The position numbers and the translations under genes are program-made. A model generated the notes under the pieces. That model was not told the DNA's origin and searched no databases. It saw only the letters and a program-made list of their open reading frames with translations. A DNA stretch of 64,000 nucleotides from Acinetobacter phage ABPH49: the sequence record MH533020.1; one strand, 5' to 3'. Of the stretch, positions 22,876 through 55,240 are shown one piece after another (positions within the stretch are counted from its first letter, which is position 1; the number at the start of each line of letters is the position of its first letter).

Positions 22876-22963
22876 CCAATTGTTCTGGCGGAAGATGAAG
22901 GATTTGAACCTTCGGGACCCATCAGGATCCTACTCCTTAGCAGGGAGCTGCATTACCGCTCTG
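22876..22963 (-). tRNA. tRNA-Ser (GCT), type II
   Basis: acceptor GGAAGAT/ATCTTCC, anticodon stem GCTCC/GGAGT loop CTGCTAA, 18-nt variable arm, T-loop TTCAAAT. Confidence 0.75.
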
Positions 22964-23124
22964 CCAATCTTCCAGTATTCTTTATGTTCGTCGGCTTGCA
23001 TCTTTCAGCGTCGCATGGAGAGAGCCGTCTCTTTATCCATACCGAATTGGGTGCCCCTGTGCATCAGAACTGTTGAGTGGGTGTTTCCAGCCGCGCAGGT
23101 GTTCCTCATTTTAGGGGCATTGTT

Positions 23125-23204
23125 TGGTGCACCGTGATGGAGTCGAACCACCCGAGTCATCTCTGACAGCAGATTTACAGTCTGCCCCGCTACCCCTACG
23201 GTCT
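23125..23204 (-). tRNA. tRNA-Tyr-like (GTA), type II, imperfect 5' half
   Basis: perfect anticodon arm GCAGA-CTGTAAA-TCTGC, variable arm, T-arm GGTGG-TTCGACT-CCATC, 3' ACGGTGC-A-CCA; 5' acceptor strand pairs only 5 of 7. Confidence 0.4.
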
Positions 23205-23282
23205 AACAATGCATTGTCCTCACTTATAGCTGAGCAAGTGATCCTTCTCAGTTATAAGTGGCCTCTTTCGAGGCACACTTTA

Positions 23283-23654
23283 TTAATCTTCACCTTCCGC
23301 CATCTTATACTCACGAATCTGAGTTGTCAATGGCATTTTCGACATATCCATCTGAGTGTTGTGAGCGTCAGAACTTGCCGAGGCAGTACCTCCGGCGTCC
23401 TTATCCTCATTCTCCTCGGTGATATACGCCGCTTGAGCAGTTTGAGCTTGCTCAATGATGAATTTAGATGTTGTCTCACGAACTTTTTCAGATTCTGCGA
23501 CAAGCAATGACTTCAACGTCTTCAAAGCTTCCGGTACAAGATCTGCAATACCGGCCTTCAGGTCGAGCATTGCTTTATCCATCTTAATAGCAACGGATTC
23601 CTCGGCCCTTGGTCGCCCACGTCGCCGTGTGACAATAGCAGCCTTTGTTGCCAT
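23283..23654 (-). CDS. AT-hook-like DNA-binding protein
   Basis: MATKAAIVTRRRGRPRAEE (RGRP AT-hook core), acidic C-terminus; AGGAG RBS; ORF track lists longer 23283-23696. Confidence 0.4.
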   Translation of the reverse strand: MATKAAIVTRRRGRPRAEESVAIKMDKAMLDLKAGIADLVPEALKTLKSLLVAESEKVRETTSKFIIEQAQTAQAAYITEENEDKDAGGTASASSDAHNTQMDMSKMPLTTQIREYKMAEGED

Positions 23655-23772
23655 GTCTAAGCTCCTGTTTAATAAGCGATGTATCCATCTTACCATCGTT
23701 TATCAAGTATTGCAAGAGCTTTTTAACATTGAAACAAAAAAGCCCCTGTCAGAAGACAAGGGCTTTTAGATC

Positions 23773-24093
23773 TTACTTACGCTTGCCTTTTACAGGCGCT
23801 GCCGCTGGTGCTTCGACCTTTTGTGCCTTCATGGCGCGTTCGCGCTCACGGCGGGTCTTACCAGTACGGACACGGTGGGATACTTTCAGTACCTCTCCGC
23901 CGACAGCTTCAGACACTGACTCCCACTCGCCCTTACGGTGGTTGTAGCGCTGAACAGTGATGGTCTTGCCACCCAGACGCAGGTCTTTTACCGGCGAGTG
24001 GGTCTGAGTCGAATAGGACTCAAATTGGAACGGATGGATGATCGCATCAATCGCGGACACTTTCTTATTCGCTTGGTTCTTAGCCATTACCAT
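23773..24093 (-). CDS. hypothetical basic protein (Lys/Arg-rich C-terminus)
   Basis: about 107 aa; GAAGGAGAAA RBS; immediately downstream of minus-strand promoter 24143-24171. Confidence 0.4.
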   Translation of the reverse strand: MVMAKNQANKKVSAIDAIIHPFQFESYSTQTHSPVKDLRLGGKTITVQRYNHRKGEWESVSEAVGGEVLKVSHRVRTGKTRRERERAMKAQKVEAPAAAPVKGKRK

Positions 24094-24142
24094 TTCTCCT
24101 TCATCAATGAAAACAATCAACTATGTCCAACTCAGTAATTCT

Positions 24143-24171
24143 ATCTTACATTTGACTTGATTCTTTGTCAA
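24143..24171 (-). promoter_or_regulatory. sigma70-like promoter TTGACA-N17-TAAGAT (minus strand)
   Basis: read on minus strand between tRNA-Leu(CAA) and 23773-24093. Confidence 0.5.
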
Positions 24172-24192
24172 TGTAATTTTTAAAAATTTATT

Positions 24193-24279
24193 TGGTGCGG
24201 GATGTGGGACTCGAACCCACAGAGCCGAAGCTCACCAGCGTTTGAAACTGGCGTGTACTGCCGATACCACCAATCCCGC
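24193..24279 (-). tRNA. tRNA-Leu (CAA), type II
   Basis: acceptor GCGGGAT/ATCCCGC, anticodon stem CCAGT/GCTGG loop TTCAAAC, variable arm TGAGCTTCGGCTC, T-arm TGTGGGTTCGAGTCCCACA. Confidence 0.65.
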
Positions 24280-24584
24280 AATTAAGTTGAGCAGAGGACG
24301 TATGCTCATGGGCTGACAACCCTTTTCGTCCAGCATGTCCCTCACGGGACGTCGGCGAGAGGCGCTGTGTATCCGCCTGAACTATCCGCAGCCAAAATGC
24401 TCACGGACCTTTCTCGCCCACCCGATCAGTTGTCATCCTGAACAGGGAACTCTTGAATAATGCCGGGACCCGATTATTTCATTCCGCCTTCCGCTACATT
24501 CGGGTCAAGATGCGCCATCTGGGTCGGGGTTGACCGCTTCCACTCCTCGTCGTACAACGGCTTCACGGGAGTCGTGTGGAAAAT

Positions 24585-26614: not shown

Positions 26615-28396
26615 TTAGTTCAGGTAACTCGCAGCTCGTTCACGAATAACCGTCAGAGACTCGTCAACAACCATCTTACCATCCTTGAAGATGATCCGCA
26701 ATTCGTTGTCTGGCGTATTTACACCATCGAACCCGAAACCATCCTTCAGGACGTAATTGCCGTCCTCTTTTACAACCTTGACACAGCCCTTGGCAGATTT
26801 CTTGCCCGGGTCGGTCTTCGGCTCTTTGCTCACCAGAATCTCAACGCCGTCGATAATAGCGCCGGTGGCTTTCACAGCAGAACCCAGACTGTCACGGGTT
26901 GCGTACTGGGTTGTGTAAGAACCGACACCGAATACGATGTTGGAGCTTGCGAAACCTTTCGCTTCCAGACGTTTGAAGATCTGGGTTGCACGATCAACGG
27001 TGATGGAGTCGCCGTAGATCAGACCGATGTGGCTATCGAGCACTTTGAAGCCTTTGCTGTTGACTTCGCCGCCGAAGATTTCCCACAGGATCTCAATGGT
27101 GCCTTTCTGCTGCGTGTCCAGAGTAGCTTCTTCGTACTCCAGCACGGTACGGCCGTCGATGTAGTAGTATTGCTTATCGTGGCGGTTCCACTCAATCTTA
27201 CCCTTCATACGGTACAGTTTGCCAGCGAAAGTGAAGAAACGGTCAACTGTATCAGGGCCTCGCTTACCGTGACCCACTTCCAGATCTTCCTCTGCACTTT
27301 CCAGCGCCCACTCGGCAGCTGATTCCAGATCGCCAGCTTCAGTCAGGTCTTCAATATCTGACCAGTCGACTGTTCCGCAGATTACGTCTACAGGGTTGCC
27401 GGAGTCTGGACGCATAACCAGACGGCCGTCGCGTGCCATGATCTTATCCTTCAGGGCAGGCAGGGCTTTGGTGATGATTGCCCAGTAGTCGTAGGAGTCG
27501 GCTACATAGGATACGAAGCCATCCGGGTAAATCTTGGTGATGAACTTATCCAAGAACTCCACTTCTGCCATGTATCGCAGGGAGTCCAGAGTTGCATCTG
27601 GAAACTCTTTACGCAGGCGCTCTACGTTGAAGCTGATGTTCGTGGTGGCAACGGAGTGCTCAGACGCCGGGATTGAACCAGCAACGAACTCATCTTCCAT
27701 GTTGTAATACTCTTCAGCATACCACTGGGAAGGAATGGTGTCGGTACCCATGAAGTGGATCAGGTGACCCAGTTCGCTCTGTGCTGCATCTGCCAGCCCA
27801 GCTTCGCCACGGAATGCGAACATGTGACACTGGAACGGGATGTGGTCCATGTTGTCACAGGTTTTCTTCGCGGCCTCTACGCACAACACTTTGAACTGGC
27901 GCATGGTTGTCGCGGTGTTCATGGTTTTCCACGTCTCCGAAGACATAACGCTCTCGAAGAAGTTTACCAGCCAGCCGAAGCCGGGGACCGTATTCTGGAT
28001 GGTGTAGACTGGCACACCTATCGGTGACAGACTACCTTCCGGCAGGGCGCGGATTTCCAGAGGCAGGTAGCCCAGATCGTAAACGGCTTCGATGCCGGAC
28101 ATATCGACCTTGCCTTTGCCGATGGATTTATCCGCGTGCTTACGCAGGCCATCGATAGCTTTTTTCTTCGATACGTTGAAGAAGTTGCGTTGGAACAGGT
28201 CGATGAAGAACCACTTAGTGAAGCCTTGCAGGCCTGCAAACATCACGCGCTGGTCTTCCCCGGTGAAGTGCGGGAACAGACGTGCAGACCGTGGGGTGTA
28301 GTTGGACTGGACGAATTCAGTCTTATCGTGGTACATCGAGATGTGTGCCGGTTTGTACCAATCAGTTGCAACGAACGGGTTCATGTTGTGAATCAT
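26615..28396 (-). CDS. nadV: nicotinamide phosphoribosyltransferase-like (NAMPT/NadV; Namat-like)
   Basis: 593 aa; N-terminus FVATDWYKPAHISMY... matches NAMPT family pattern; adjacent to Prs-like gene. Confidence 0.8.
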   Translation of the reverse strand: MIHNMNPFVATDWYKPAHISMYHDKTEFVQSNYTPRSARLFPHFTGEDQRVMFAGLQGFTKWFFIDLFQRNFFNVSKKKAIDGLRKHADKSIGKGKVDMSGIEAVYDLGYLPLEIRALPEGSLSPIGVPVYTIQNTVPGFGWLVNFFESVMSSETWKTMNTATTMRQFKVLCVEAAKKTCDNMDHIPFQCHMFAFRGEAGLADAAQSELGHLIHFMGTDTIPSQWYAEEYYNMEDEFVAGSIPASEHSVATTNISFNVERLRKEFPDATLDSLRYMAEVEFLDKFITKIYPDGFVSYVADSYDYWAIITKALPALKDKIMARDGRLVMRPDSGNPVDVICGTVDWSDIEDLTEAGDLESAAEWALESAEEDLEVGHGKRGPDTVDRFFTFAGKLYRMKGKIEWNRHDKQYYYIDGRTVLEYEEATLDTQQKGTIEILWEIFGGEVNSKGFKVLDSHIGLIYGDSITVDRATQIFKRLEAKGFASSNIVFGVGSYTTQYATRDSLGSAVKATGAIIDGVEILVSKEPKTDPGKKSAKGCVKVVKEDGNYVLKDGFGFDGVNTPDNELRIIFKDGKMVVDESLTVIRERAASYLN

Positions 28397-28454: not shown

Positions 28455-29330
28455 TTAACCGAAGTATCCGGTCTGGTCAAGAGTTTTAATCAACCCTTTT
28501 GGATCGTGACCTTCTACGTACTTCTTCCACGGGAATGGGGTGTAGACTGCATCAATAATGCCGTCGAATACTTCCAGACCTTTCGAGAAGATGCCGTGAG
28601 TAACGTAAAGCAGAACTGTCTTTGCCCCAGCCTCTTTCAACGCATTGGCGAGATGGATGAATGTTGCACCACCATCTGCAATGTCGTCAACCATCAGAAC
28701 TGTTCGACCTTTTACGTCCGAACCCATGAACCCGGTACCGGTGATCTGACCGGTAGAAACGTCGCGATGTTTGATGCCAATCACCATCTCCTTGGCACCC
28801 ATGTTTGCAGCGAGTTTTGACACCTTCTTCAAAGCACCAGCGTCTGGAGAGCAGAATAGAACCTCTTCCTGACGAGCGATACGGGTGTAATGGTCACTTC
28901 GTACCAAAAGACCAACAGCTTGGGTTTCAACCCCAGTAACCCGAAGGTTCTTGATGAGGGCCGGACCAACATCACTGTGTGGGTCGTAAACATGAACAGC
29001 GTCGAAGTTCATGCTGTTGATCAGATTAGCCATCACACGGACAGATAGTGCTTCACCCGTGACCATTGCCCGGTCTTGCCGTGCATACGGGAGGTATGGG
29101 ATGAACAGGTTTTTAGGGGAATCCGACATCCCACCGTGATTATCCATTGCATCCTTGAGCAACAGAAGATCCATCACGTCATCCGAAGAGGTAATGTGGG
29201 CAACTACGTTAACAGGGCCTTTGACATTGAAGCCCAACGACATCCCGGGGATTTTTACGTTGCGTTCACCACCGCTGAAGCTGAAGAATTGTGGAATCAA
29301 GTCCACACCAAAGCGATTTAATTTGATCAT
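28455..29330 (-). CDS. prs: ribose-phosphate pyrophosphokinase-like (Prs / Adps-like)
   Basis: 291 aa with PRPP-binding signature VLMVDDIADGGATF and Prs-like N-domain. Confidence 0.8.
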   Translation of the reverse strand: MIKLNRFGVDLIPQFFSFSGGERNVKIPGMSLGFNVKGPVNVVAHITSSDDVMDLLLLKDAMDNHGGMSDSPKNLFIPYLPYARQDRAMVTGEALSVRVMANLINSMNFDAVHVYDPHSDVGPALIKNLRVTGVETQAVGLLVRSDHYTRIARQEEVLFCSPDAGALKKVSKLAANMGAKEMVIGIKHRDVSTGQITGTGFMGSDVKGRTVLMVDDIADGGATFIHLANALKEAGAKTVLLYVTHGIFSKGLEVFDGIIDAVYTPFPWKKYVEGHDPKGLIKTLDQTGYFG

Positions 29331-29836
29331 TTTCTCTCTCCTTGCTGTTGAAGTTTTCGATACGAAGCAGTCTGCACCTTTGAATGACCGATGTCAATCA
29401 TATTTTTAGCTGCCAACAGGTCGTAGGGTGTGATCCCCAGACGTCCGTTGATGATGACCGACGGGTACAGGTACATGTTGGCACCTGCGTCGTCAATAAT
29501 CGCCCACTTGGTGATTTCATTTTCCTCAACAAAGTCGAGGACCCCAGTGCCTCTTCCGAACCCACCCCCGCAGTGGCGGCCAGTGCAGAAGATGTTGAAA
29601 CCGAGAGACTCTGAAACCATCTTCAGGTCCTTTTTGTCTGAACCGACAAACCATGAGCTGACACCAACCACCACGATACCTTCTCGGTTAACCCACCCAG
29701 CGAACATGTTGCAGAGTGTCCGATCAACATATCGTGTAAGGTCGACAGTCTTGTCAACCTGCTCATTTCTATAAGGTGCATAGTTCAATACACCATCAAT
29801 GTCCAAGAAAACTACTTTTGCTTTTCGCCAGTCCAT
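29327..29836 (-). CDS. HAD-superfamily phosphatase-like protein
   Basis: N-terminal FLDIDGVL (DxDxV/T motif I); 169 aa; coupled to prs. Confidence 0.45.
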   Translation of the reverse strand: MDWRKAKVVFLDIDGVLNYAPYRNEQVDKTVDLTRYVDRTLCNMFAGWVNREGIVVVGVSSWFVGSDKKDLKMVSESLGFNIFCTGRHCGGGFGRGTGVLDFVEENEITKWAIIDDAGANMYLYPSVIINGRLGITPYDLLAAKNMIDIGHSKVQTASYRKLQQQGERK

Positions 29837-38445: not shown

Positions 38446-38762
38446 TGGGTAACGTACTCCACATCCATGCAACTGATCGCGCTCTGGCTACTGGGCTGTT
38501 TGCACCGCAGGACTCTCCATCTGAGAACTGTGAGTACAACATGTACCTGCCGTCAGAATCATGCGACATGAAGATCTGGCTAACCCAGATCGACACAATC
38601 TTCCAGAGGGTATACTGGATCGGCTTCGACTATGTGACCATCCATAGCGGGGATTATTCAAGCTTGGCAATCACTGGGATGAAAATCAACCTTGGAAATC
38701 TTCTTTTCCGAGAAGGTTCCCGGGTGAATGTCCCTAGTGACCTGCTGAGGAAATTCCTGTGA
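38446..38762 (+). CDS. hypothetical protein
   Basis: 105 aa. Confidence 0.35.
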
Positions 38763-39196
38763 AGATAACAGACAAGCACGTATTGTTCTTTTCATACAAG
38801 GATATGTTCAGCAACCACTTCCGGTCTGAACGCCCATTCTTCTCTCCACGTCATGAGCGTGACGGGGTTAAGTTCTATACCGGCGAGCACTTCATGATGT
38901 ATGAGAAGGCAAAGCTGTTCGGTGATGAAGAGATCTCAAAGAAGATCCTTGAAACATTCCACCCTCAGGAGGCAAAGAAGCTCGGACGGCTGGTGAAGGG
39001 GTTCAACAACGATGTGTGGGAGTATCACCGTGAGGACATAATCTTCTCGATCGTGTATTGCCGGTTGGTATACGACCAACACCTACGCCTGTCGGCGCTC
39101 AATCACCGCATGGATGGCCGATCATTCGTTGAGGCGTCCCCTTGGGACAAGATCTACGGCATCGGTCTGAAGGAGACTGACCCTGCGTGCGGCTGA
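38759..39196 (+). CDS. NADAR (YbiA/DUF1768) domain protein
   Basis: FFSYKDMFSNHF...GEHFMMYEKAKLF...KKLGRLVKGFNNDVW...FVEASPWDKIYGIG matches YbiA/NADAR pattern across full length; GTG start. Confidence 0.7.
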   Translation: MKITDKHVLFFSYKDMFSNHFRSERPFFSPRHERDGVKFYTGEHFMMYEKAKLFGDEEISKKILETFHPQEAKKLGRLVKGFNNDVWEYHREDIIFSIVYCRLVYDQHLRLSALNHRMDGRSFVEASPWDKIYGIGLKETDPACG

Positions 39197-39397
39197 CGAT
39201 CCATCCCAATGGAAAGGATTAAACCTCCTCGGCAAGGCGTGGGACAACGCCACAGACGCTCTGGCGGAAAAGTGCGGAGGGTACGAGCTTATGAGTAAGG
39301 AGAGAGCAACATGGGGCATATAATGCTACTGATGGTTTACGCTGGATGGTTCTCATCGGTGGCGTGGCTAAGTTTTACTGGGAAACTGCATTTTACC

Positions 39398-39426
39398 TTG
39401 ACAGTTTCCCGTTAGCGGTGTATGGT
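39398..39426 (+). promoter_or_regulatory. sigma70-like promoter TTGACA-N17-TATGGT
   Basis: upstream of 39488 HNH gene. Confidence 0.45.
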
Positions 39427-39487
39427 ATCATGTTCTTCTTCCTGACACATCTGGTTGCTTTCTACGAAGTGAAAAGGAGGGGTTACA

Positions 39488-40000
39488 TTGTCAGATAAGA
39501 TAAAGCACAAGATCTGTCTTATCCCAAGGACATCGTGGGACCAAAACCTGCGAAGCCACCTGACGAAGACAGGTTGGGACAAGGTAAGGCGAAAGTGCTA
39601 CGCAGAACATGGCTATCATTGTCAGATCTGCGGGAACCAAGGTGGTAACGGTAAAAAACACCCCGTTGAGTGTCATGAAGACTGGACATTCGAAGACGGA
39701 GAGGTTAAGCTGGTAGGCCTTATGTGCCTGTGCCCTCCGTGTCATGAATTCCATCACCCGGGGCTGGCCGAGATGAACGGTAATGTCGAGCGTATGCTCC
39801 GGCAGTTCATGAAGGTGAATAACATCACTCGCGATCAGGCGATCGCATACATGAAGAGTGAGTTCAATATCTGGCGGGAGCGCAGCAAACAAAGCTGGAC
39901 CCTCAATATTGACTACCTCGACGAGTACATGGGTGGTGAGCAGGTTGGTAAGAAAAAGAAACCGGTGCTGAAGGACTACGGCCCGGGCGAGGCATTCTGA
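39488..40000 (+). CDS. HNH endonuclease
   Basis: CQICGN...HPVECHEDW...LMCLCPPCHEFHH HNH zinc-finger motif; 170 aa. Confidence 0.65.
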   Translation: MSDKIKHKICLIPRTSWDQNLRSHLTKTGWDKVRRKCYAEHGYHCQICGNQGGNGKKHPVECHEDWTFEDGEVKLVGLMCLCPPCHEFHHPGLAEMNGNVERMLRQFMKVNNITRDQAIAYMKSEFNIWRERSKQSWTLNIDYLDEYMGGEQVGKKKKPVLKDYGPGEAF

Positions 40001-40028
40001 GGAGTGCGAGAGAAGTGAAGAGGGGGTT

Positions 40029-41153
40029 TTGATGGGGTACCCATACGTTAAGGACCTCGCGGAGATCATGTCTCCAGATTGTGAGATTATTCTCGATCTG
40101 GATCAGACGTGCTTCGTGGCGGCGGCAGGAGCCGAGAAGAGAACGATCAAGGCGATTCACACCAAATCAGGGAAGTTCGAGATCTTCAAGAACAGGACCG
40201 AGTTCTGGGGATCCGGTAAGAAAGCGATCGGTGGTTGGCTGAAGGATTCAAACACCAACCGCGAGATGGCGGCAATGAAGGCTGGAAAGACCTTCAGGCC
40301 ACTTGGTCGGGAAGACTTCACAATCGAGGATATTCAGACGCCGGAGCCGGTTGAGAACTGTCTACACCTGCTGAAGGTGAAGATCAACGCAATCCTCGAG
40401 CACATGCAGTGCGAAAACGGTGTGGGTGTTCTGGGCGGGGAAGGAAACTTCCGCCTTGTTCTTCCAACGCCGGAGATTTACAAGGGCAACCGCGAAGACA
40501 CTCTACGACCGCTTCTGTTGGCGGATACCCGCGAGTACGTCAAGAAGAAATACGGCGCGGTTGTGATCGACGGGATCGAGGCTGATGACTACCTGACCAT
40601 GAAACAGTGGGAGGGGTGGCAGCACTACCAGCGGACTGGCAAGTTCAACAAGATCGTTGCCTCGTTCGACAAGGATCAGGTGCAGTGCCCGGGGCTTATC
40701 TTCAACACGATGCGTGAAACGGATAAAGGCCGCGAGTCTGGGTGGAAACACCCGCAGCCAATGCTTATCGACGATTCGATGGGTGAAGTGTGGATGGAGA
40801 AGGGTAAGGTTAAGGGCTGGGGTAAGAAATTCTTCGGCTACCAGATGCTGTTTGGCGACACGTCGGACAACGTCAAACCCTACCAGAACTTCGACATCAA
40901 GTTTGGGGAAGGTGCCGCCTTCAAGGTGATCTCCCCTTGCGACACGGAAGCCGACATGTGGGCTGCGATCGTAGACACTTACAAGGGCTGGTTCCCTGAT
41001 GGTGTTGAGTTTGTGGACCACTCTGGAGTTGAGCGTAAGTTTACTGCCGGGCAGTGGGCGAGCGTAATCTTCCAGCTGGTGTACATGAAAAGGTGGGAAG
41101 GTGACGAAACTTCCTTGACCACAAAACTGAGGGAGGTTGGGCTGATCAAATGA
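40029..41153 (+). CDS. 5'-3' exonuclease / flap endonuclease (FEN, T4 RNase H-like)
   Basis: motifs ILDLDQTCF, VIDGIEADDYL, ASFDKDQVQ, FGDTSDNVKP correspond to FEN/PIN catalytic clusters. Confidence 0.65.
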   Translation: MMGYPYVKDLAEIMSPDCEIILDLDQTCFVAAAGAEKRTIKAIHTKSGKFEIFKNRTEFWGSGKKAIGGWLKDSNTNREMAAMKAGKTFRPLGREDFTIEDIQTPEPVENCLHLLKVKINAILEHMQCENGVGVLGGEGNFRLVLPTPEIYKGNREDTLRPLLLADTREYVKKKYGAVVIDGIEADDYLTMKQWEGWQHYQRTGKFNKIVASFDKDQVQCPGLIFNTMRETDKGRESGWKHPQPMLIDDSMGEVWMEKGKVKGWGKKFFGYQMLFGDTSDNVKPYQNFDIKFGEGAAFKVISPCDTEADMWAAIVDTYKGWFPDGVEFVDHSGVERKFTAGQWASVIFQLVYMKRWEGDETSLTTKLREVGLIK

Positions 41154-41482
41154 TCTTTGAGAATGCTGATGAGAAAATCATCGAACTCGTAGAGGCGGAG
41201 GATTCTCTTCGCCACCACCTCGCCCAGTACAAGGGTGCAACAATGTTCTACGATGGACCGTGGACCATTGTTGACGACCCTTGGTCGATCCAGTGGTTGA
41301 ACGAAAAGGAAGAGTTGTGCCAAGTGCAGATCATCGCACCACCGATTGAGGGTGAAAAGTTGAGCATGTTCGTTTGCACATTCGATGCACGAACTGTTCT
41401 GAACCTTGTCCTCATGAAGGAAGAGTACATCAGTGTCGAACACGAATTGGAGAAAGAAAAGAGTGAGAATCCTGACGATTGA
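41150..41482 (+). CDS. hypothetical protein
   Basis: 110 aa, ATGA-coupled. Confidence 0.35.
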   Translation: MIFENADEKIIELVEAEDSLRHHLAQYKGATMFYDGPWTIVDDPWSIQWLNEKEELCQVQIIAPPIEGEKLSMFVCTFDARTVLNLVLMKEEYISVEHELEKEKSENPDD

Positions 41483-42044
41483 CCAGAGTATGGCGTCATG
41501 CGCCTACGTGGTGTTGGAAGACGAAAAGCCGATCTTCAAAGAGGTGTTGCACACAACCGGGGCTGCTGATCCAAAGGCTTGGCAGATCAGGTTCGATAAC
41601 CCGGTTGAGCAAATGGATTACATCTCCAAGAAGATCCTCGGGGTAGCCAACAGCTTCGAAGTCGAGCACGTCGTTATGGAATCGCTGAGTTTCGGATCTG
41701 CGGGTAACGCAACCCGCGATCTGGCCGGGCTGTTCTTCTGCATCCAGCTCACTCTGTTCCGAGATGGACGGTATGGGATGGATCAGCTGCATACGATCGC
41801 GCCGACATCGGCCAAATCTTGGGCATGGAACTTCTTGCCAGAAGACATGCAGTCCGTCCCTAATGAAAAGGGAACCAAGATGAACAAGCGAAAGATGGGT
41901 AAGGATGAAATGGTGATTGTTGCCAAATCTCTGTACCCGGGTTTCCTTGACGGCTACAACAAAACAGGTAAGAATGGTGGGTTGACTGACCTCGCGGATG
42001 CGATCTTGATTGGTCGTACTTGGCGGGCTAAGCGGGGGCTGTAA
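41463..42044 (+). CDS. RuvC-like Holliday junction resolvase
   Basis: RILTIDQSMAS..., ESLSFGSAGN, LTDLADAILIG (RuvC-like D/E/D/D arrangement); GTG start, alternative 41433. Confidence 0.6.
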   Translation: MRILTIDQSMASCAYVVLEDEKPIFKEVLHTTGAADPKAWQIRFDNPVEQMDYISKKILGVANSFEVEHVVMESLSFGSAGNATRDLAGLFFCIQLTLFRDGRYGMDQLHTIAPTSAKSWAWNFLPEDMQSVPNEKGTKMNKRKMGKDEMVIVAKSLYPGFLDGYNKTGKNGGLTDLADAILIGRTWRAKRGL

Positions 42045-42628
42045 TGGCCCGTCGCTACCGCCGTAAAACTTCGAGGTCTGCAAAGCCGAAGTTTGCCACC
42101 AAGAAAAAGGTGACCGCTCGAATCACCACACCGCTGAATAAGGATTTATGGGTTTCAGGGTCGAAATCTATAGAGAAAGAAAGGGATAGGATCCTCGCAG
42201 AACAAGGAGGGCTTTGCGCTCTCCTCGGCGAGCCGGTGATAGACCCGTGTCTTGACCATGATCATTACGACGGGAAATGCCGGGGAGTCCTAAGCAGTGT
42301 GGTCAACATGTGGGAAGGGAAAGTTCATGAGTTGTGGGGACGTCATGTGGCCGAATACACAGACACCCCGCTCAGTGAAGTCCTGAGGAGAATGGCCGAT
42401 TATCTGGAAGCTGATCGGACACAATCTAAGCTGCATGGTAAAACAGTGGCCGACCTGAAGGCTTACCTGAAAAAACTGACGAAAGAAACGATCGTCCGTC
42501 GTGGACGAGAGATCCTTGGTATTGAGATCGACCCGGAACTCGAAAAGGTTGAGCAGATCAGGATCTACGTCGTCGAATTCATTCGTCAACTCGAGGAGAA
42601 TTACGGTTATGAGAGAAGTCGGCCTTAG
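42044..42628 (+). CDS. endonuclease VII-like (T4 gp49-like) resolvase
   Basis: GGLCALLGEPVIDPCLDHDHYDGKCRGVLSSVVNMWEGK resembles EndoVII zinc/H-N-H core. Confidence 0.6.
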   Translation: MARRYRRKTSRSAKPKFATKKKVTARITTPLNKDLWVSGSKSIEKERDRILAEQGGLCALLGEPVIDPCLDHDHYDGKCRGVLSSVVNMWEGKVHELWGRHVAEYTDTPLSEVLRRMADYLEADRTQSKLHGKTVADLKAYLKKLTKETIVRRGREILGIEIDPELEKVEQIRIYVVEFIRQLEENYGYERSRP

Positions 42629-42833
42629 TGCAGGGATTGATGCACCAGTGATCCAGTTCTTCTATCGCAATTGGCGAGGGGAGTGTGGCTACCGTAAGAT
42701 CAAGGGGACTCCGCAGTTCTGGTATGGAACGAGCCAGTACCACAAGGGTGCCCAGTGGTTCATCAAGGCATACGATGCAGACAAAGATGATGTAAGAGAC
42801 TTCGCAGTCAAAGACATCATTGAATTCGTGTAA
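42609..42833 (+). CDS. hypothetical protein
   Basis: 74 aa. Confidence 0.3.
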   Translation: MREVGLSAGIDAPVIQFFYRNWRGECGYRKIKGTPQFWYGTSQYHKGAQWFIKAYDADKDDVRDFAVKDIIEFV

Positions 42834-42853
42834 ACGAGAGGAGAATAGCAGTA

Positions 42854-43828
42854 ATGACAACCAACCAAACGGTCAAGGCAACAATCACGGATGAGCAGTT
42901 GGAAAATCTGAAGGCGTCTGGGCTTTCCAACCGAGCGATTGCCCGAGACTATCTGGGCAAAGAGAGTCGTGAGTCCTACGTGCGCCTGCGTCTTGATCGC
43001 CTGTACGGAAGCACACGAGCAAGTGTCAGTGCGCTGAACGCTGCCAAACGAAGGGCTAGTGGTCCGAAGGTTCTCGTATTGGACATCGAGACAGCACCGC
43101 TGATCGCCCACATGTGGAGCCTCTGGCAAAACGGGATCGGCCTGAACCAAATGCAAGGTGACTGGCACCTGCTGTCGTATGCTGCCAAGTGGATTGATAG
43201 CGACGAAGTGTTCTACAAGGATCAGCGTGACAAGGAAGACATCACGGATGACTCTGAGCTGTTGGAAGATCTCTGGGAGCTTCTGAACGAAGCGGACTTC
43301 GTGATTGGTCACAACATCCGCAAGTTCGACATCAAGAAGATCAAGGCCCGGATGCTGTTGAATGGCTTGCCGCCTCCGTCAACCTTCCGACAGATTGACA
43401 CCCTGATCATTGCCAAGAGCGTGTTCGCGTTCACCAGCAATAAGCTGGAGTACCTGACTGACAAACTCTGCAAGGTGTTCAAGAAGTCCAAGCACGGTAA
43501 GTTCCACGGACATTCCCTGTGGACAGAGTGTCTGAAAGGTAACCCGGAAGCATGGCTGGAGATGGAGGAATACAACAAGTACGACATCCTGTCCAACCAA
43601 GAGCTGTACGAGATTCTGGCACCGTGGGATGCCCGCCTGCCGAACTTCGACCTGTACACGGATGAGGTCCTCGACAACTCCGAATGGGTTAAAGACGGGT
43701 ACCACCTGACCAACCTCGGTAAGTACGATCGTTATCGTCACGTGGTGACCGGCCAGTACCGCCGTGGGCGGAAAAATCTGCTAACGAAGGAAAAGCGAGC
43801 TTCGTTGCTGTCAAACATCATCGCTTAA
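42854..43828 (+). CDS. DEDD-family 3'-5' exonuclease (DnaQ-like)
   Basis: exo motifs VLDIETAP (I), GHNIRKFD (II), YNKYDIL...ELY (III); 324 aa. Confidence 0.6.
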   Translation: MTTNQTVKATITDEQLENLKASGLSNRAIARDYLGKESRESYVRLRLDRLYGSTRASVSALNAAKRRASGPKVLVLDIETAPLIAHMWSLWQNGIGLNQMQGDWHLLSYAAKWIDSDEVFYKDQRDKEDITDDSELLEDLWELLNEADFVIGHNIRKFDIKKIKARMLLNGLPPPSTFRQIDTLIIAKSVFAFTSNKLEYLTDKLCKVFKKSKHGKFHGHSLWTECLKGNPEAWLEMEEYNKYDILSNQELYEILAPWDARLPNFDLYTDEVLDNSEWVKDGYHLTNLGKYDRYRHVVTGQYRRGRKNLLTKEKRASLLSNIIA

Positions 43829-43833
43829 CACTC

Positions 43834-43861
43834 AAAGGTCACCTTCGGGTGGCCTTTTTTC
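43834..43861 (+). terminator. rho-independent terminator (copy 2 of shared 33-mer)
   Basis: identical to 38162-38194 block. Confidence 0.7.
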
Positions 43862-43929
43862 GTGATTGGTGATTGACATGGTCGGTAGGATTTGAGAAAA
43901 TTCTCATGTTGAAGAAGAGAGGAGAAGAA

Positions 43930-44567
43930 ATGAAGATCATTGCTTTAAATGCCCCTGCGAACTCCGGCAAAGACGAGATCGCTAAATACCTGAGCAAAAA
44001 TACGGCACCGTGCACATGGAGATCAAAGAGCTGCTGTTCGAAGTGGCTATCCGCGCCGCCGGGGTCAGCAAAAAGCTCTGGGAAGCACTGTATGAGCGCG
44101 AGTACAAAGAGCGCCCATGCCCATACCTGATGATCAACGGACAAAACGTCAGCCCGCGTGAGTGGATGATCCATTGTTCTGAGGGACTGATGAAGCCGAT
44201 CTTCGGCAACACTGTGTTCGGCGACGCCCTCCGCAAGAAACTCGAGGCTTTGGAAGAAGAGAATGCCGGTAAAGAGTTGGTGATCGTCCTGTCCGATGGG
44301 GGCTTCGTTGCTGAGGCGATTCCAAACATGGATTTTGTCGGTGTTCACAATTACTACCTCGCCCGCGTGCAGCGCGTGGATGAAAACGGTGACCCAAGCA
44401 AATACGGCTTCGGGGCAGATAGTCGCCGGTTCTTGTACGCCAGTGACTTTGGCTTCGCTATCCGTGCCGTTGATTGGGAAAACCGACCAAATGAGCTTGA
44501 GCAGCTGGCAGAAGAGATCTATGCCGACGCAATGGCTAACAAAAAGAGCAGCTGGGAGCAACCATGA
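43930..44567 (+). pseudogene. deoxynucleoside monophosphate kinase-like P-loop kinase split by apparent A-run deletion at 43996-44000
   Basis: MKIIALNAPANSGKDEIAKYLSKN (frame a) continues as YGTVHMEIKELLFE... in frame -1; one extra A in CAAAAAT restores a 212-aa ORF. Confidence 0.5.
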
Positions 44568-45160
44568 TTAAATGTCCTATCATTGTCGACGTGGATCAGA
44601 CCTTCGTAGATTCTGCAACACCGTGGCTTCGGTGGTGTGAGGATGTGTACGGTGTTCTGCCAGACTGGAGCCAAAGCCCTCCGAGTGGTGAGATGCACTA
44701 CAACATCGGGAGCTATTTCCCGTCGCCGAAGAAGCATCAACCTCTGCCGCTGTTGTTCTGGGAGGATCCGTTCCTCTACGACAAGCTTCGTCCTCTGCCC
44801 GGCGCACTGGTCGTACTCCGCAAACTGAAAAGTATGGGACACCCGATCCGCTTTGTCTCTTACTGCAAGAACGGCCACTTCAGTTCAAAGGCGAGATTCC
44901 TGAAGCGTGAGACAAGCGACTTCTTGGATCTCGAGACTGGGTCAACTGGGGACGGGTTCTACGCCACAAAGGTGAAAAGTGGTGTAAGCGGTGGTGTGAT
45001 CATTGACGATCGCAACGAGTTCCTGAACCAGTTTGCGGATGACGTGCTGAAGATTAAGATGTGGACCCCGTTCACACAGTCTGTTGAGCCACGTTGCAAA
45101 TACGACTTCGAGGCTCGCAGCTGGAAGCAGATCGGCGACTTCCTGCTGGCAACGCTGTAA
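44564..45160 (+). CDS. HAD-family 5'(3')-deoxyribonucleotidase-like
   Basis: IIVDVDQTFVDS (DxDxT) motif I, 198 aa. Confidence 0.5.
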   Translation: MIKCPIIVDVDQTFVDSATPWLRWCEDVYGVLPDWSQSPPSGEMHYNIGSYFPSPKKHQPLPLLFWEDPFLYDKLRPLPGALVVLRKLKSMGHPIRFVSYCKNGHFSSKARFLKRETSDFLDLETGSTGDGFYATKVKSGVSGGVIIDDRNEFLNQFADDVLKIKMWTPFTQSVEPRCKYDFEARSWKQIGDFLLATL

Positions 45161-45348
45161 TGGCGAAGGATTGTGGCACATACGCGGTTAAGTATGGGCA
45201 GCAGGTGGAGATTCTGGACGGCGAGGGGAACATCCTCGCCTCTTTCAGAGCCAGATCTGACATGTGCAAAGAAATTCTTGACAGGTATTTGGCTAACATG
45301 TACCATGTCGACACAACAAAACAGTACAAAATCAAAAGGATACGATGA
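45160..45348 (+). CDS. hypothetical protein
   Basis: 62 aa MAKDCGTYAVKYGQQ; TAATG overlap. Confidence 0.3.
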   Translation: MAKDCGTYAVKYGQQVEILDGEGNILASFRARSDMCKEILDRYLANMYHVDTTKQYKIKRIR

Positions 45349-46332
45349 ATGAGTAAAGTGTTCGAAGGTCGTGGTAACATCTTCGTTAAGGTGATTGCGG
45401 ATTCCAAAGTTCGAGAGAACAAGGAGCAAAAGGCGAGGGTAACAACGTTTGAGTTGACATACCCACGGATCATTCATGCTGAGCTGATGACTCACCGGGT
45501 CCTGACGAAAAATGCGATGTCTTCCCGAGCAGTACCGATCGCAACGATGATTGAACTGGTCCGCAGCCAACCTGCAATGCCGGTAGAGTGGGGCAGCAAT
45601 AACCCGGGAATGCGTTCCATGAACTTGCTGGGTGAAGAAGAGACTGCCAAAGCCAAGGAACTTTGGATTGAGGCCTCCGAGTTTGCTTGCCAGAAGGCAG
45701 AAGAGCTGGCCGCGCTGAATGCACACAAACAGATCGCCAACCGCCTGCTGGAGCCGTTCCAGTTTATGCGTACCATCGTTACCGGCACCGACTGGAACAA
45801 CTTCCGCTGGTTGCGTGTGGACAAGGATGCGGATCCTACCTTCTACGAACTGGCTAAGGTGATGATGGCAGCGATGGATCAAAGCCATCCAGAAACTTTG
45901 AAGTTTGGTCAGTGGCACACCCCGTATGTTGAGCATTGCGAGGGTGGAGCGCCGGGCACGTTCGGTTATTACGTGACGGATGAAGAAGATCAGCGTGTGA
46001 TGCTGACCAAGGAAGAAGCATTGGCGATCTCCGCCTCCTGCTGCGCTCAGGTGAGTTATCGCCGACTGAACAGCACGAAAGACAAAGCATTGGACATCTA
46101 TGGTCGTCTGCTGTCTGGCAACAAGGTGCACGCCAGTCCGTTCGAGCATCAGGCGACGCCTCTCCCGTACCACATGTACGAGAAGAAGCCGCTGAATGGT
46201 GTTGCACTGCCACCGTGGAACTGGCCGAAGGGTGTTACACACGTCAGCCGTGAAATGGAGTATTTCTCTGGCAACCTGCGTGGCTTCATACAGCACCGAC
46301 AATTGCTGGAAAATAACGTCAAAGCCGGTTGA
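45349..46332 (+). CDS. thyX: FAD-dependent thymidylate synthase ThyX
   Basis: ThyX signature THRVLTKNAMSSRA (RHR-x7-S-x-R) and HASPFEH; 327 aa. Confidence 0.75.
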   Translation: MSKVFEGRGNIFVKVIADSKVRENKEQKARVTTFELTYPRIIHAELMTHRVLTKNAMSSRAVPIATMIELVRSQPAMPVEWGSNNPGMRSMNLLGEEETAKAKELWIEASEFACQKAEELAALNAHKQIANRLLEPFQFMRTIVTGTDWNNFRWLRVDKDADPTFYELAKVMMAAMDQSHPETLKFGQWHTPYVEHCEGGAPGTFGYYVTDEEDQRVMLTKEEALAISASCCAQVSYRRLNSTKDKALDIYGRLLSGNKVHASPFEHQATPLPYHMYEKKPLNGVALPPWNWPKGVTHVSREMEYFSGNLRGFIQHRQLLENNVKAG

Positions 46333-49551: not shown

Positions 49552-50648
49552 ATGTCCGTATTCAACAAAGAGAATAACAACTGGAAAACTGGTAAGTACC
49601 CCCTGTTTTTGGGAGAGCAACTGGGCCTTCTCGACACCGTAAACACACCATACAAGCGCCTGTTCGAACTGTACAAGCTGCAAAAGAGCATCGACTGGGA
49701 CGAGAACGAGATGAACCTCGAGCAGTCACGTTTGGACATGGCAACCTGCCTGCCGGGCACCCGAAACCTGATGATCAAGAACTTGGCATTCCAAGCCGAG
49801 CTTGATGGTATCGCGGCACGATGCATGGCACCGCTGCTGGCACCGTTCATCACCAACACGGAGATGTGGCTGGGAGTATCCAAGATCACCGAGGTGGAAA
49901 ACCTCCACGCGATCACTTACACCACGATCATCCGCAACGTACTGAAGAATCCAGAAGAGTTCTTCGAAGAGATCACCAAGAACGAGAAGATCTTCGATCG
50001 TTCTGACAGCGTAATGGAAGTATTTGACGAGCTGGCGATCGCCGGTGCAAAATACACGCTGGACAAAAACTCCATCCCGCGCCGCGAGCTTATGTCTCTG
50101 CTGTTGCGTGCCTACGTGGGCATTTACTGTCTGGAGCGACTCCAGTTCATGTCTTCGTTCGCTGCAACCTTCGCGATCGGCGAGCAGGGCATGATGGTCG
50201 GGATCGCCAAGCTGGTATCGAAGATGCTCAGGACGAGCAGCTGCACGCAGCGTTCGACGAGGAAGTTATTCGGATCCTGTTGGCAGACCCAGAGTGGGCG
50301 GAAGTTTACGAAGAGATTAAGCCGTTTGTGCTGCGCTTTGTAAACGCTGTAACCAAGAGCGAGCTGGACTGGAACGAATATCTGTTCTCCGAGGGTCGTC
50401 AGATCGTTGGCCTGAACCGCCAGTTGCTGGACGAATGGGTCCTGTTGAACGCGGGTGTGGTGTACAAGTTCTTGGGCGTTGAAAACCCGCACAAGATCAT
50501 CGATGTGTCCCCGATCACTTGGATGGGCGATTGGCTGGATATCTCCAAGTTCCAGTTCGCGGCACAAGAAGGTGACATCACCGACTACCCAATGAACGTC
50601 GTGAGTAATGACGTTTCCGATGATGAAGAATTCGACTTCGAGGGATAA
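49552..50648 (+). pseudogene. nrdB: ribonucleotide reductase small subunit NrdB, split by apparent single-T deletion near 50216
   Basis: N-terminal frame (to 50343) and C-terminal frame (50280-50648) are -1 apart; AKLV|IEDAQDEQLH aligns to E. coli NrdB AKIIRLIARDEALH when one T is restored in GGTATC. Confidence 0.75.
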
Positions 50649-51849: not shown

Positions 51850-52596
51850 ATGCGTCGAAACAACCGTAAAGAAGCACAGGATCGCCGTGACCGTAAAGAA
51901 GTCCGTGGCCGGATTGTAACTCAGCGTGGTAGAGAGGAAGCCTCGATGGCTAAGCCGATCACCCCGCAGGGGATCTTCCAGAAGGATCTTCTTTTCGCGA
52001 TTTCCAACAAGAGTGCAGTCTTCGTTGATGCACCTGCTGGTTCGGGTAAGACGTTTGTTGTGATGAGTACCGTATCTGACTGGCTGAAGCAGGGCAAGAT
52101 CAAGAAGATCGTCCTGTCCCGACCAAGTGTCGGGATGGGTAAGTCTCTCGGACTCTTGCCCGGAGACATCAAGGAGAAGTTCGAGCCGTATCTGGCAGCA
52201 CTGATCTCTGTGTTGACAAATCGGTACGGGCACGGGTACTATGAGACTCAACTGTCCAACAAGAACATCGAGTTCGTGCCTCTGGAATACATCCGTGGCC
52301 GGTCATTTGACAACGCTGTCGTGATCGTCGACGAGTTCCAGAACACCACAGAGGATGATGCTTACACCATCATGACTCGTCTGGGTGAGAACTCTCGCAT
52401 GTTCTGTCTGGGTGATTGCACCCAGAGCGACATGAGGGGCCGTACAACTGGACTGGAGTGGGCGATCAGCTTCATCGATCGTCACAATCTTGGAGAGTTT
52501 GCGGAAATTGTGGAAGGCGACAGCGACGATATCGTCCGCAGTCCTTTCTGCCGGGCGGTTGTTAAAGCTCGAGAACAAGATCTGGGTCTGAATTAA
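51850..52596 (+). CDS. phoH: PhoH-like ATPase
   Basis: Walker A DAPAGSGKTF, VVIVDEFQN, GDCTQSD; true start may be 51946 (MAKPITPQ). Confidence 0.75.
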   Translation: MRRNNRKEAQDRRDRKEVRGRIVTQRGREEASMAKPITPQGIFQKDLLFAISNKSAVFVDAPAGSGKTFVVMSTVSDWLKQGKIKKIVLSRPSVGMGKSLGLLPGDIKEKFEPYLAALISVLTNRYGHGYYETQLSNKNIEFVPLEYIRGRSFDNAVVIVDEFQNTTEDDAYTIMTRLGENSRMFCLGDCTQSDMRGRTTGLEWAISFIDRHNLGEFAEIVEGDSDDIVRSPFCRAVVKAREQDLGLN

Positions 52597-52821
52597 GGAG
52601 TCAAAATGCAAGATGAATTCGATGGTTTCATCGGCTACGGTGAAGGCATCCTCGGTGAAGAAGACTGGGGAGTTTTCAAGAAGAGTGAGGAGAACTGGGA
52701 TGTTTGATAAACAAATGGCCCAACTTCACTCGGATGCGATGAAGCTCCGCAGTCTGATGGATGACCTGCTGATTCGCTCAGCTGAAGATGTGGATTTCTT
52801 CGACGAGTACGAGGGCGTCTA

Positions 52822-53454
52822 ATGTATTACACGGGGATCGGCAGTAGAGATATCCCGGCAGAGGTGGTTAGCATCATGGAAGATGCTGGCTACCGACTTG
52901 CCAAGATGGGGTGGGTTCTCCGCTCAGGAAAGGCAGACGGGTCCGACGCAGCATTCCAACGTGGGATGCAGAAGTACGTGATAGACTCTGGGATCTCGGA
53001 CTACAAGCGCTTGGCTGAAATTTACATCCCTTGGGACAATTTCACCGGCGGTCAAGGACTTCGAGATCATTGGGACATAAGTCTGAACCAAATCGACATG
53101 TTGTTCCCAGAGCACTCGGCGATGAGGAAGGAGTGGATGTCTGAAGTTCACCCAGCACCAGAGCGTTTGTCTCAGGGTGCCGAGAAACTTCACCTCCGCA
53201 ACGTCCATCAGGTGTTCGGTCCAAACCTGACAGATGCCTTCATAAACCAGAGCAAGTTCGTGTTGTATTACGCGAAAGAAGACAAGAAGGGTAATCCAAA
53301 AGGCGGCACTGCCACGGCTGTAAACCTTGCCAAGAAGACCGGGATCCGAGTCCTTAACCTTCTGAATCAAGAGGGGCGTGACAAGCTGGAGAGTTTCCTC
53401 AAGCAAATGGAGGAGAGAAGGAATGCAAAAAGTGAAGGTAGTCCTCTGCGCTAA
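52822..53454 (+). CDS. DprA/Smf-like (SLOG/Rossmann) protein
   Basis: MYYTGIGSRDIP...RSGKADGSDAAFQRG resembles DprA SGGAxGIDxxAH Rossmann motif; 210 aa. Confidence 0.4.
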   Translation: MYYTGIGSRDIPAEVVSIMEDAGYRLAKMGWVLRSGKADGSDAAFQRGMQKYVIDSGISDYKRLAEIYIPWDNFTGGQGLRDHWDISLNQIDMLFPEHSAMRKEWMSEVHPAPERLSQGAEKLHLRNVHQVFGPNLTDAFINQSKFVLYYAKEDKKGNPKGGTATAVNLAKKTGIRVLNLLNQEGRDKLESFLKQMEERRNAKSEGSPLR

Positions 53455-53569
53455 GTGCCTGAAGGTGTATAGGATAAAAGACCCTAAGGATTGTTGCCCG
53501 GGGTGCAAGAAGCAGATATTCTACTCGAACTACACGACCGAGGAGGTTGATGATGTTAAAGGATCCTAA
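53423..53569 (+). CDS. small zinc-ribbon protein
   Basis: CAKC...CPGC, 48 aa; GGAGAGAAGG RBS. Confidence 0.3.
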   Translation: MQKVKVVLCAKCLKVYRIKDPKDCCPGCKKQIFYSNYTTEEVDDVKGS

Positions 53570-53879
53570 GGACCTGAATTATCTCTACTCGTTGGGTAAG
53601 AGAAAAGGCGCACAGTATTTTGAAGTGTGCAACATAGTCGGCGACTGGCTGATTAGTGTTGACGATGGGAAGAAGGTTTGCAAGAGTGACCAGCTTACCC
53701 GTCGCCGGATGTTCCGCGAAGCGGAGTTCATTGTGAAGCCACAAGTTGAGGGCCAGCCTTACAAGCAAGGGGCGAGGATCTCTAAGGAAGATAGTGATGG
53801 ACACCCAGCATGGTTCTACATTGTTGAAGTCGGCGAAGAAAGCCCTGACGGAGACGTCAAGTTGTTGGTTGCGTACTGA
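53553..53879 (+). CDS. hypothetical protein
   Basis: about 108 aa. Confidence 0.35.
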   Translation: MLKDPKDLNYLYSLGKRKGAQYFEVCNIVGDWLISVDDGKKVCKSDQLTRRRMFREAEFIVKPQVEGQPYKQGARISKEDSDGHPAWFYIVEVGEESPDGDVKLLVAY

Positions 53880-53895
53880 TCAAAAGGGAGAGTGC

Positions 53896-54405
53896 ATGAG
53901 TCAAGTGTTGTTGGCGGTGGTTCCGCATCGTCGGTTGATGGAGCTGAAGAACTCCGGGGTTGTTCGTCCACAAACGATCAAAGATTTGGCGGATATCGCC
54001 TTCATCAGACTGCGTGACAAGATCATTGCCAAGCGGATTGAAGCAGAGAAGCCTACCGGAATCCTGCGGCTGATGAAAAGAAGCACATTCGAACACCACC
54101 TTACCCGCGAGGTTGAAGTGATGTTCGAGAATCGCGAGGCGCTGGTGTCTCACGTCCAGTGCATTAAGGATCGTCTGCCAACACCTCTTGTGCCGGTGGA
54201 TGAGTCAGAAGTGAAGGATCTTCTGTTCTTGGATCGCGCTACCACGTGTGCCGCAGAAGCGGAGAAGGTTGTGATGCTGTTCAAACTGCATGACGAGGTA
54301 ATCGTTGATGCGGATACCAGCTTCCTGTTGAGCTGGCTGATGAGCAACACGCAGCGAATCAAAGACCACATTGCCGGGGAGGTGAAAGATGAATCGAACC
54401 AATAA
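53896..54405 (+). CDS. hypothetical protein
   Basis: 169 aa; AAGGGAGAG RBS. Confidence 0.35.
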   Translation: MSQVLLAVVPHRRLMELKNSGVVRPQTIKDLADIAFIRLRDKIIAKRIEAEKPTGILRLMKRSTFEHHLTREVEVMFENREALVSHVQCIKDRLPTPLVPVDESEVKDLLFLDRATTCAAEAEKVVMLFKLHDEVIVDADTSFLLSWLMSNTQRIKDHIAGEVKDESNQ

Positions 54406-55240
54406 GCGTGAAGATTTGGATGGCGGTTTCATGACGGTTGATACCAGCTCAGAGCGTTCGATCTGGCGTCGTGAGCAGATCACCACCCTTTGGGAGGTTT
54501 ACCTGTCCGGGGCAATGGAGAATCATGGCGATCATTTGGAACGTATCGACCTGATCCGTGCCGCGAGTCCAGAAGATACAATCCGTATCCACCTGAACAC
54601 GCCGGGCGGTGTTGTCTCCATCATGGAAAGCTACCTCGACGCGATCTCCGAGTCTCAGGCGAAGATCATTACCCGCGCCGTTGGGCAAGTTTGCTCTGCC
54701 GGGACTGACATCTGGCTGGCCGGTGATGAGCGTGAAATCTCAGACCGAGCTATCTTCATGTTCCACAACACGCAGCTGTGGACCGGTGGCGACCTGTATA
54801 ACGTTCAGAAGTACGCTGACTTCTCGTCACGTCTGTTCAAGGACCAGCTGACCGTAACCTACGGCGAAGTGCTGACAGAGGCAGAGCTGAACACCATCTT
54901 CACCGGCGGCGAGGTGTGGTTGAGGGGAACTGACATGCAACGCCGTGTCGAGGGCGTAGCGCCTCAGCAGCTGGTCGGGAAAGAGATTGCGAGCGAGACT
55001 GAAGAACCTTCTTCCGGGCGTGAGCTGAAGATCATTCTGGAAGATGGCTACAGTAAACTCATCCCGATTGACACCCTCTCGGTAAAGGACTTTTACGAGT
55101 TCAACCACCAAGAGCTGAAGGGCATCTTGAGCGGTATGGGAGTATCACCTGACCGCTGGATGGGCGTCCGATCGGCCACTGACCTTGCCCAGATGGTCGT
55201 TGACGTGGTGAACGAAACGTATAAGCGGGGCGATCAGTGA
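54389..55240 (+). CDS. ClpP-like (S14/S49) serine protease
   Basis: HLNTPGGVVSIMESYLDAISE...GQVCSAGTDIWLAGDER...FMFHN aligns to ClpP INSPGG...GQAASMGA...MIHQP (Ser/His positions conserved). Confidence 0.55.
   Translation: MNRTNKREDLDGGFMTVDTSSERSIWRREQITTLWEVYLSGAMENHGDHLERIDLIRAASPEDTIRIHLNTPGGVVSIMESYLDAISESQAKIITRAVGQVCSAGTDIWLAGDEREISDRAIFMFHNTQLWTGGDLYNVQKYADFSSRLFKDQLTVTYGEVLTEAELNTIFTGGEVWLRGTDMQRRVEGVAPQQLVGKEIASETEEPSSGRELKIILEDGYSKLIPIDTLSVKDFYEFNHQELKGILSGMGVSPDRWMGVRSATDLAQMVVDVVNETYKRGDQ

Follow-up and report, generated by a model that had tools for sequence, protein, structure and literature searches.

A YbiA-type NADAR gene, probably directed at DarT1, is interrupted by a 4-bp duplication in the sequence of phage ABPH49

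Does phage ABPH49 carry its own means of removing ADP-ribose (ADPr) from DNA, and if so, which toxin would it oppose and is the gene whole? The question arises from a NADAR-like open reading frame (ORF) in record MH533020.1, of which we analyzed a stretch of 64,000 nt (hereafter the window). A phage NADAR acting as an anti-DarT factor is already published, in the form of AdfN, NADAR^Bas32 and NADAR^Bas60; new here is an uncharacterised orthologue from a Serratia/'Acinetobacter' lineage of Vequintavirinae, disrupted in the ABPH49 sequence. The observations as a whole are best explained, with a probability of about 0.65, by a gene whose intact form would be an anti-DarT1 NADAR and which is here frameshifted and most likely inactive. 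We see the main value of the locus in the correction of an annotation and in the recurrent decay of an accessory counter-defence gene.

A NADAR gene that stops short

The NADAR-like ORF is genuine and exceeds chance similarity. As written, it matches the Pfam NADAR profile PF08719 with 91.5 bits (E 8.9e-26; cut-off 35.1) and the NCBIfam model TIGR02464 with 91 bits (cut-off 73.7), which bears out the NADAR/YbiA family assignment made by the sequence-only reading; the coordinates given there, 38759-39196, were likewise exact and delimit one plus-strand ORF of 145 codons. Its GTG overlaps the TGA stop of the preceding ORF as GTGA, at the position where Serratia phage vB_SmaM-ChuuTotoro has an ATG start (ATGA). 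Full-length similarity, which had also been claimed, was not found: the ORF covers only profile positions 11-137 of the 163 in PF08719, the C-terminal part being encoded in the +1 frame, and it does not make up a complete NADAR domain, ending before the WxGxNLLG loop and the helix H155-170. A read-through reconstruction extends the PF08719 match to positions 11-161 of 163 and lifts the score to 113.5 bits (+22 bits).

Within the phage collection, ChuuTotoro (81% nucleotide identity here) and Serratia phage vB_SmaM-Kashira (98.8%), both Vequintavirinae, come closest, and each carries an intact gene of 561 nt and 186 aa at this locus. What interrupts the gene in the window is a 4-bp tandem duplication, with TGCG at 39184-39187 and again at 39188-39191: in a three-way alignment Kashira reads CCCTGCGGCT where the window reads CCCTGCGTGCGGCT, and the equivalent site is a single TGCG in Kashira and AGCT in ChuuTotoro, the duplication being present in neither. 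The window product consists of residues 1-143 of the 186-aa ancestral protein followed by Cys-Gly and a stop at 39194-39196. Directly 3', the +1 frame reads ...AADDPSQWKGLNLLGKAWDNATDALAEKCGGYELMSKERATWGI*, the canonical NADAR C-terminus; in a tblastn search, residues 143-186 map to 39189-39320 (frame 3), with 100% protein identity to the C-terminus of Kashira, and the original TAA stop (39321-39323) is still there, inside the remnant. Separate translation of this C-terminal remnant is ruled out, as it has no start codon before an internal Met near its end.

AXN57782.1, annotated as a 'hypothetical protein' of Acinetobacter phage ABPH49 and encoded on a contig of 149,960 bp, has exactly the sequence of the ORF product and clusters with the 186-aa Kashira protein at 90% identity. 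Looking for the exact 145-aa product among contigs gave no record, although AXN57782.1 is present in the cluster database, and a search of the 64,000-nt window for a second NADAR copy found none. AXN57782.1 as deposited is a truncated fragment and is unsuitable as a full-length NADAR. An uninterrupted gene reaching past the WxGxNLLG motif is found in 59 of the 60 nearest phage records, and we classify the locus, on its sequence, as a YbiA-type NADAR gene conserved among Vequintavirinae-like myoviruses.

Table 1. Positions of the features discussed, numbered from the first letter of the window
Feature	Position	Strand	Description and basis
Truncated NADAR ORF	38759..39196	+	GTG start, TGA stop, 145 aa; ORF list
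Shine-Dalgarno-like GAGGA	38747..38751	+	7 nt 5' of the GTG; read from the sequence
4-bp tandem duplication TGCG/TGCG, frameshifting lesion	39184..39191	+	Three-way DNA alignment, indel census, tandem-repeat check
Out-of-frame remnant, residues 144-186	39192..39323	+ (+1 frame)	Translation, tblastn
HNH endonuclease gene just 3' of NADAR	39488-40000	+	phrog_5200, E 2e-68
Nampt/NAPRTase-like (Namat) gene	26615-28396	-	Pfam; 3' of the Prs-like gene
Prs-like (Adps) gene	28455-29330	-	Pfam; NARP1-like pair
HAD_SAK_2-domain gene	29327-29836	-	Directly before the Prs-like gene, 4-nt overlap
1-bp deletions relative to Kashira	14619, 20074, 31859, 39377, 44000, 50225, 56391		Base runs inside Kashira CDSs

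The gene lies in a plus-strand block of early replication-type genes, in the order DNA ligase, small hypothetical genes, NADAR, a hydrophobic ORF of 50-62 aa, HNH endonuclease and an RNase H/flap-nuclease-like gene. A promoter and terminator scan of 37.5-40.2 kb returned no more sites than shuffled sequence. The NADAR had also been linked conceptually to an NAD salvage module. The window does hold a NARP1-like pair with the Pfam composition and order of the Bas63 NARP1 operon (Adps + Namat), 9.4 kb from the NADAR gene and on the opposite strand; in Bas60, such a pair and the NADAR are about 60 kb apart. On these positions a physical or operonic connection is rejected, and the proposed link holds only as a thematic one: both would counter NAD-using defences. 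A HAD_SAK_2-domain gene stands directly before the pair in the window, and such a HAD-type partner would be a different one.

ABPH49 (MH533020) is described as a singleton 'Acinetobacter' phage of the Vequintavirinae whose closest relative is Kashira and whose tailspikes resemble those of Serratia phages. The window is 97-99.7% identical to Kashira, a phage of Serratia marcescens, which makes the assignment of Acinetobacter baumannii as host doubtful. By correspondence with Kashira 52439-56483, where about 20 tRNAs are annotated, a tRNA cluster is expected at about 20400-24500 on the minus strand; alignment blocks show that parts of this region are rearranged or have diverged between the phages.

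Fold and ADP-ribose site of the repaired protein

An AlphaFold2 model of the repaired protein has a pLDDT of 96.6 and a pTM of 0.91. It matches the ADP-ribose-bound NADAR of P. nicotianae (PnNADAR, 8BAU; TM 0.75, E 5e-9), to which the sequence also aligns (phmmer, E 6e-12), as well as E. coli YbiA (2B3W; TM 0.68-0.75); at E ≤ 0.001 the model had no further match among solved structures. To map residues, we combined the phmmer alignment with 8BAU and the ADPr contacts listed by Schuller et al. 2023 (PMC11543638), with an offset of 2 in the 8BAU chain numbering that all named residues upheld. The resulting pairs (window/PnNADAR) are E43/E43, K50/K50, K73/K75, G76/G78, R77/R79, V79/V81, F82/Y84, N84/D86, W87/W89, R91/R93, E125/E125, D130/D130 and Y133/W133. 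Every PnNADAR residue reported to touch ADPr is thus conserved or conservatively replaced, and all of them precede residue 143; the truncated ORF retains E43, K50, K73, G76, R77, W87, R91, E125, D130 and Y133. A lack of catalytic residues had been named as grounds for rejecting the anti-DarT reading; all are present, with E43, K50 and E125 aligning to their PnNADAR counterparts.

The same residues place the protein within the family. The catalytic Glu/Lys pair (E43 and K50 in PnNADAR, E88 and K95 in E. coli C7) is there, and E125, in the F-V-E-A-S strand (E122-125), is invariant in the alignment, as in the YbiA subfamily. The BC4488/DarG1 type is not matched, F123 occupying the position of the Asp (C7 D171) and no ART domain being found among the neighbours; nor is the gp30.3/AdfN type, the last-strand position holding Glu rather than His.

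An alignment of 52-53 phage and bacterial homologues has 14 invariant columns: F10, E43, M47, K50, A51, K73, G76, W87, E125, D130, G152, N154, L156 and G157. The 43 residues lost in the window contain four of these (G152, N154, L156 and G157) and two of the 15 nearly invariant ones (W150 and L155). Lost with them are the entire W150-x-G152-x-N154-L155-L156-G157 motif, the helix H155-170, which is part of the core fold, and the terminal helix H173-183.

A real mutation or an error in the record

A base-by-base comparison of the window with Kashira over 63.3 kb yielded 796 substitutions and 20 indels. Seven 1-bp indels fall within Kashira CDSs, every one a deletion in the window and in a base run, and genes split in this way include those for RNR beta, broken at residue 225 of 365 (49552-50226 / 50226-50645), and dNMP kinase (about 43930-44564), as well as a 131-aa hypothetical gene and the small gene directly after NADAR. 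Taken by themselves, the 1-bp deletions suggest either homopolymer-type errors in the record or an unusually damaged phage stock. The NADAR gene has nine substitutions relative to Kashira, all up to 39172, and the flanking regions diverge by 1-3%; from 39173 to about 46000 (6.8 kb) there are 0 substitutions, together with three frameshifting indels at 39188, 39377 and 44000. Indels that do not track divergence point to sequence error or to mutation that is very recent. The boundary of the 39173-46000 segment looks like the edge of a recombination mosaic inside the 3' end of NADAR, beside the HNH endonuclease gene.

Whether the NADAR lesion is real or an artefact of sequencing or assembly stands at roughly even odds. 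We give just short of an even chance to the possibility that the frameshift is such an artefact and that the real phage has an intact 186-aa NADAR with a C-terminus identical to that of Kashira. The seven 1-bp CDS deletions in base runs elsewhere in the window, the three frameshifting indels amid 6.8 kb free of substitutions and the complete protein identity of the out-of-frame remnant to Kashira all speak for this; yet a 4-bp tandem duplication is unlike the homopolymer undercalls seen elsewhere and is a classic replication-slippage mutation, and the independent degradation of the same gene in Escherichia phage A7_1, a Logan contig and RB69 makes a real loss plausible. Exact matches to the duplicated and the wild-type alleles in viral_contigs and metagenome_contigs numbered 0. 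It is very improbable that the interrupted gene as written still yields a functional product, be it through a +1 ribosomal shift at GGC-UGA-C or through a 145-aa core active alone. A one-base skip at the UGA would restore the ancestral frame, the resulting ...DPACG-DDPSQW... exceeding the wild type by one residue, and the ADPr-contacting residues all lie within 1-143. There is, however, no slippery P-site codon, tRNA-Gly on GGC being unable to re-pair on GCU; the sole Shine-Dalgarno-like AGGAG stands about 15 nt upstream, as against ~3 nt in prfB; and no relative shares the arrangement, so that it is no conserved recoding signal. Four invariant columns and a core helix are moreover lost, and RB69 provides a precedent against activity of a truncated NADAR. 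A programmed +1 frameshift is ruled out by the missing slippery codon, the Shine-Dalgarno spacing and the lack of conservation in relatives, and we would be equally surprised by low-level +1 frameshifting, or by a 145-aa core serving as a minimal NADAR or ADP-ribose-binding protein.

The gene is broken independently in at least three phage sequences, which fits a dispensable, host-dependent anti-defence gene. In Escherichia phage A7_1 (OP795442), the NADAR orthologue is split over two frames near residues 88-98, and the record lists it as two CDSs (601-1145 of the extracted OP795442 locus). A ChuuTotoro-like Logan contig (SRR28250427, 969-1394) has an in-frame deletion of residues 2-46, flanked by CATGA repeats, which removes the catalytic E43, and also carries W150C and G152D. 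In RB69, the sole DarTG1-sensitive T-even phage in the set studied, a single-T insertion in adfN truncates AdfN by 15 residues, the terminal helix. Because this loss of just 15 residues goes with DarTG1 sensitivity, the 145-aa product of the window is expected to be inactive or unstable, and probably is so; the truncated ORF, which keeps all known catalytic residues, could retain some residual activity. Should the lesion be real, ABPH49 and Kashira would form a natural near-isogenic pair differing in an anti-DarT1 gene, and with it a natural comparison for DarTG1 sensitivity.

Endonuclease genes recur beside this locus in other phages as well: in A7_1, a homing endonuclease lies directly 3' of the broken NADAR (1152-1652 of the extracted OP795442 locus), and in Klebsiella K54-type phages an HNH gene is annotated within the matched region. 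A homing endonuclease acting here might speed up turnover of the sequence around NADAR.

Proposed function and comparison with known systems

By analogy with its characterised homologues, the intact 186-aa form would be a stand-alone ADP-ribosyl glycohydrolase that removes ADP-ribose from guanines modified by host DarT1 on replicating phage ssDNA, allowing replication to continue in DarTG1-bearing hosts. E43 and E125 would hold the distal ribose, and K50 with a shell of K73, R77, W87, R91, D130 and Y133 the diphosphate and adenine, if the chemistry of the homologues applies. The duplication shifts the frame after residue 143 and leaves a product without the WxGxNLLG loop and the final core helix. 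A DarT1-directed, orphan antitoxin-like DNA ADP-ribosyl glycohydrolase is the best-supported account of what the intact orthologue may be; both its activity and the loss of function in the truncated form are what we infer.

The guanine-ADPr made by DarT1 is the predicted target because every NADAR subtype tested cleaves guanine-ADPr, and thymidine-ADPr is a substrate for none of them (PMC11125620). T4 gp30.3 (AdfN) removes DarT1-made ADP-ribose from phage DNA (Johannesman, Carlson, LeRoux; PMC11257639), and two unrelated phage NADARs gave DarTG1-sensitive phages a gain in plating of several logs and neutralised DarT1, with no rescue from DarTG2 (PMC11257639). In one study, E. coli YbiA and T4 gp30.3 hydrolysed guanine-ADPr in vitro and did not rescue DarT1 toxicity (PMC11125620). 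Of the NADARs with experimental data, the nearest to the window protein is NADAR^Bas60 (bas60_0111 of Escherichia phage PaulScherrer/Bas60, MZ501100 82014-82565); over 170 aa it shares 39% identity with the repaired protein (E 1e-31), a figure that does not guarantee equal specificity in vivo. The anti-DarTG role suggested by the sequence-only reading survives in part: phage NADARs are proven anti-DarT factors and this relative is among them, but the gene is frameshifted in the window and the target would be DarT1. DarT2, against which a protection test had been proposed, is the wrong toxin: thymidine-ADPr is not removed by NADARs, and NADAR^Bas60 gave no rescue from DarTG2, so that a DarT2 assay would serve as a negative control.

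Two other functions compete with a DarT1-directed role. It is possible, though in our view unlikely, that a toxin different from DarT1 makes the ADPr-nucleic acid which is the natural target, examples being YarT-like or pierisin/ScARP-like ARTs, cytidine-ADPr or RNA-ADPr. The protein is indeed a Glu-carrying, YbiA-type NADAR and not of the DarT1-associated Asp type, and YbiA-type NADARs serve as YarT antitoxins (PMC11125620) and remove cytidine-ADPr (PMC12945103); it also matches the PADLOC candidate-defence component PDC-M42C. Yet NADAR^Bas60, which is also Glu-type and positive for both TIGR02464 and PDC-M42C, neutralises DarT1 and counters DarTG1, and roles against DarT1 and against another toxin are not mutually exclusive. 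Distinctly less probable is a YbiA-like metabolic N-glycosidase that destroys reactive riboflavin-pathway intermediates, with the gene then counting as auxiliary metabolic rather than anti-defence. It is suggested by the name of TIGR02464, 'riboflavin biosynthesis intermediates N-glycosidase' (106 bits against the cut-off of 73.7), by the fold match to YbiA 2B3W and by the annotation of homologues as YbiA, GTP cyclohydrolase II or swarming motility protein in some phage records. The TIGR02464 label is non-discriminating, however, because the window protein and the anti-DarTG1 NADAR^Bas60 (109 bits) both match above the cut-off; the neighbours are a ligase, an RNase H/flap nuclease and an HNH endonuclease, with no riboflavin genes nearby; and guanine-ADPr is hydrolysed by every NADAR subtype tested (PMC11125620).

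Among solved structures, YbiA (2B3W) and PnNADAR (8BAU) are the best sequence and structure matches to the probable anti-DarT1 protein and share its Glu-type site. YbiA differs in being chromosomal, in its link to the detoxification of riboflavin intermediates and in giving no DarT1 rescue in vivo (PMC11125620), and the phage protein differs from both in an extra C-terminal helix, H173-183, and in its replication-module context. DarG1 (E. coli C7, G. lovleyi; BC4488 family) has the NADAR fold, with E88, K95 and K115 equivalent to E43, K50 and K73, and its hydrolysis of guanine-ADPr is predicted for the window protein as well; in the latter, however, D171 is replaced by F123, E125 two residues later would be used instead, and no darT gene is adjacent.

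AdfN (T4 gp30.3) is, like the window protein, an orphan phage NADAR, and the +T allele of RB69 is a direct precedent for the lesion described here, with 15 residues lost in RB69 AdfN as against 43 in the window allele. The gp30.3 clade has His at the position of E125 and forms a separate cluster near DarG1, and in the analysis of Johannesman et al. the Vequintavirinae-type NADAR falls outside the AdfN cluster (PMC11257639). AdfN is described as effective only in a Tevenvirinae context (PMC11257639).

NADAR^Bas60, found in the Vequintavirinae-like phages Bas60-62, counters DarTG1 and neutralises DarT1, and does not act on DarTG2 (PMC11257639). It lies in another genomic neighbourhood, Bas60 is now placed in the Stephanstirmvirinae, and only the window copy is frameshifted. 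In other respects the two are alike: both are stand-alone Glu-type NADARs of about 185 aa from large myoviruses of about 150 kb, with the same Pfam, TIGR02464 and PDC-M42C matches and the same E, K, E, D and WxGxNLLG residues, and Bas60, too, carries a Prs-like/Nampt-like pair.
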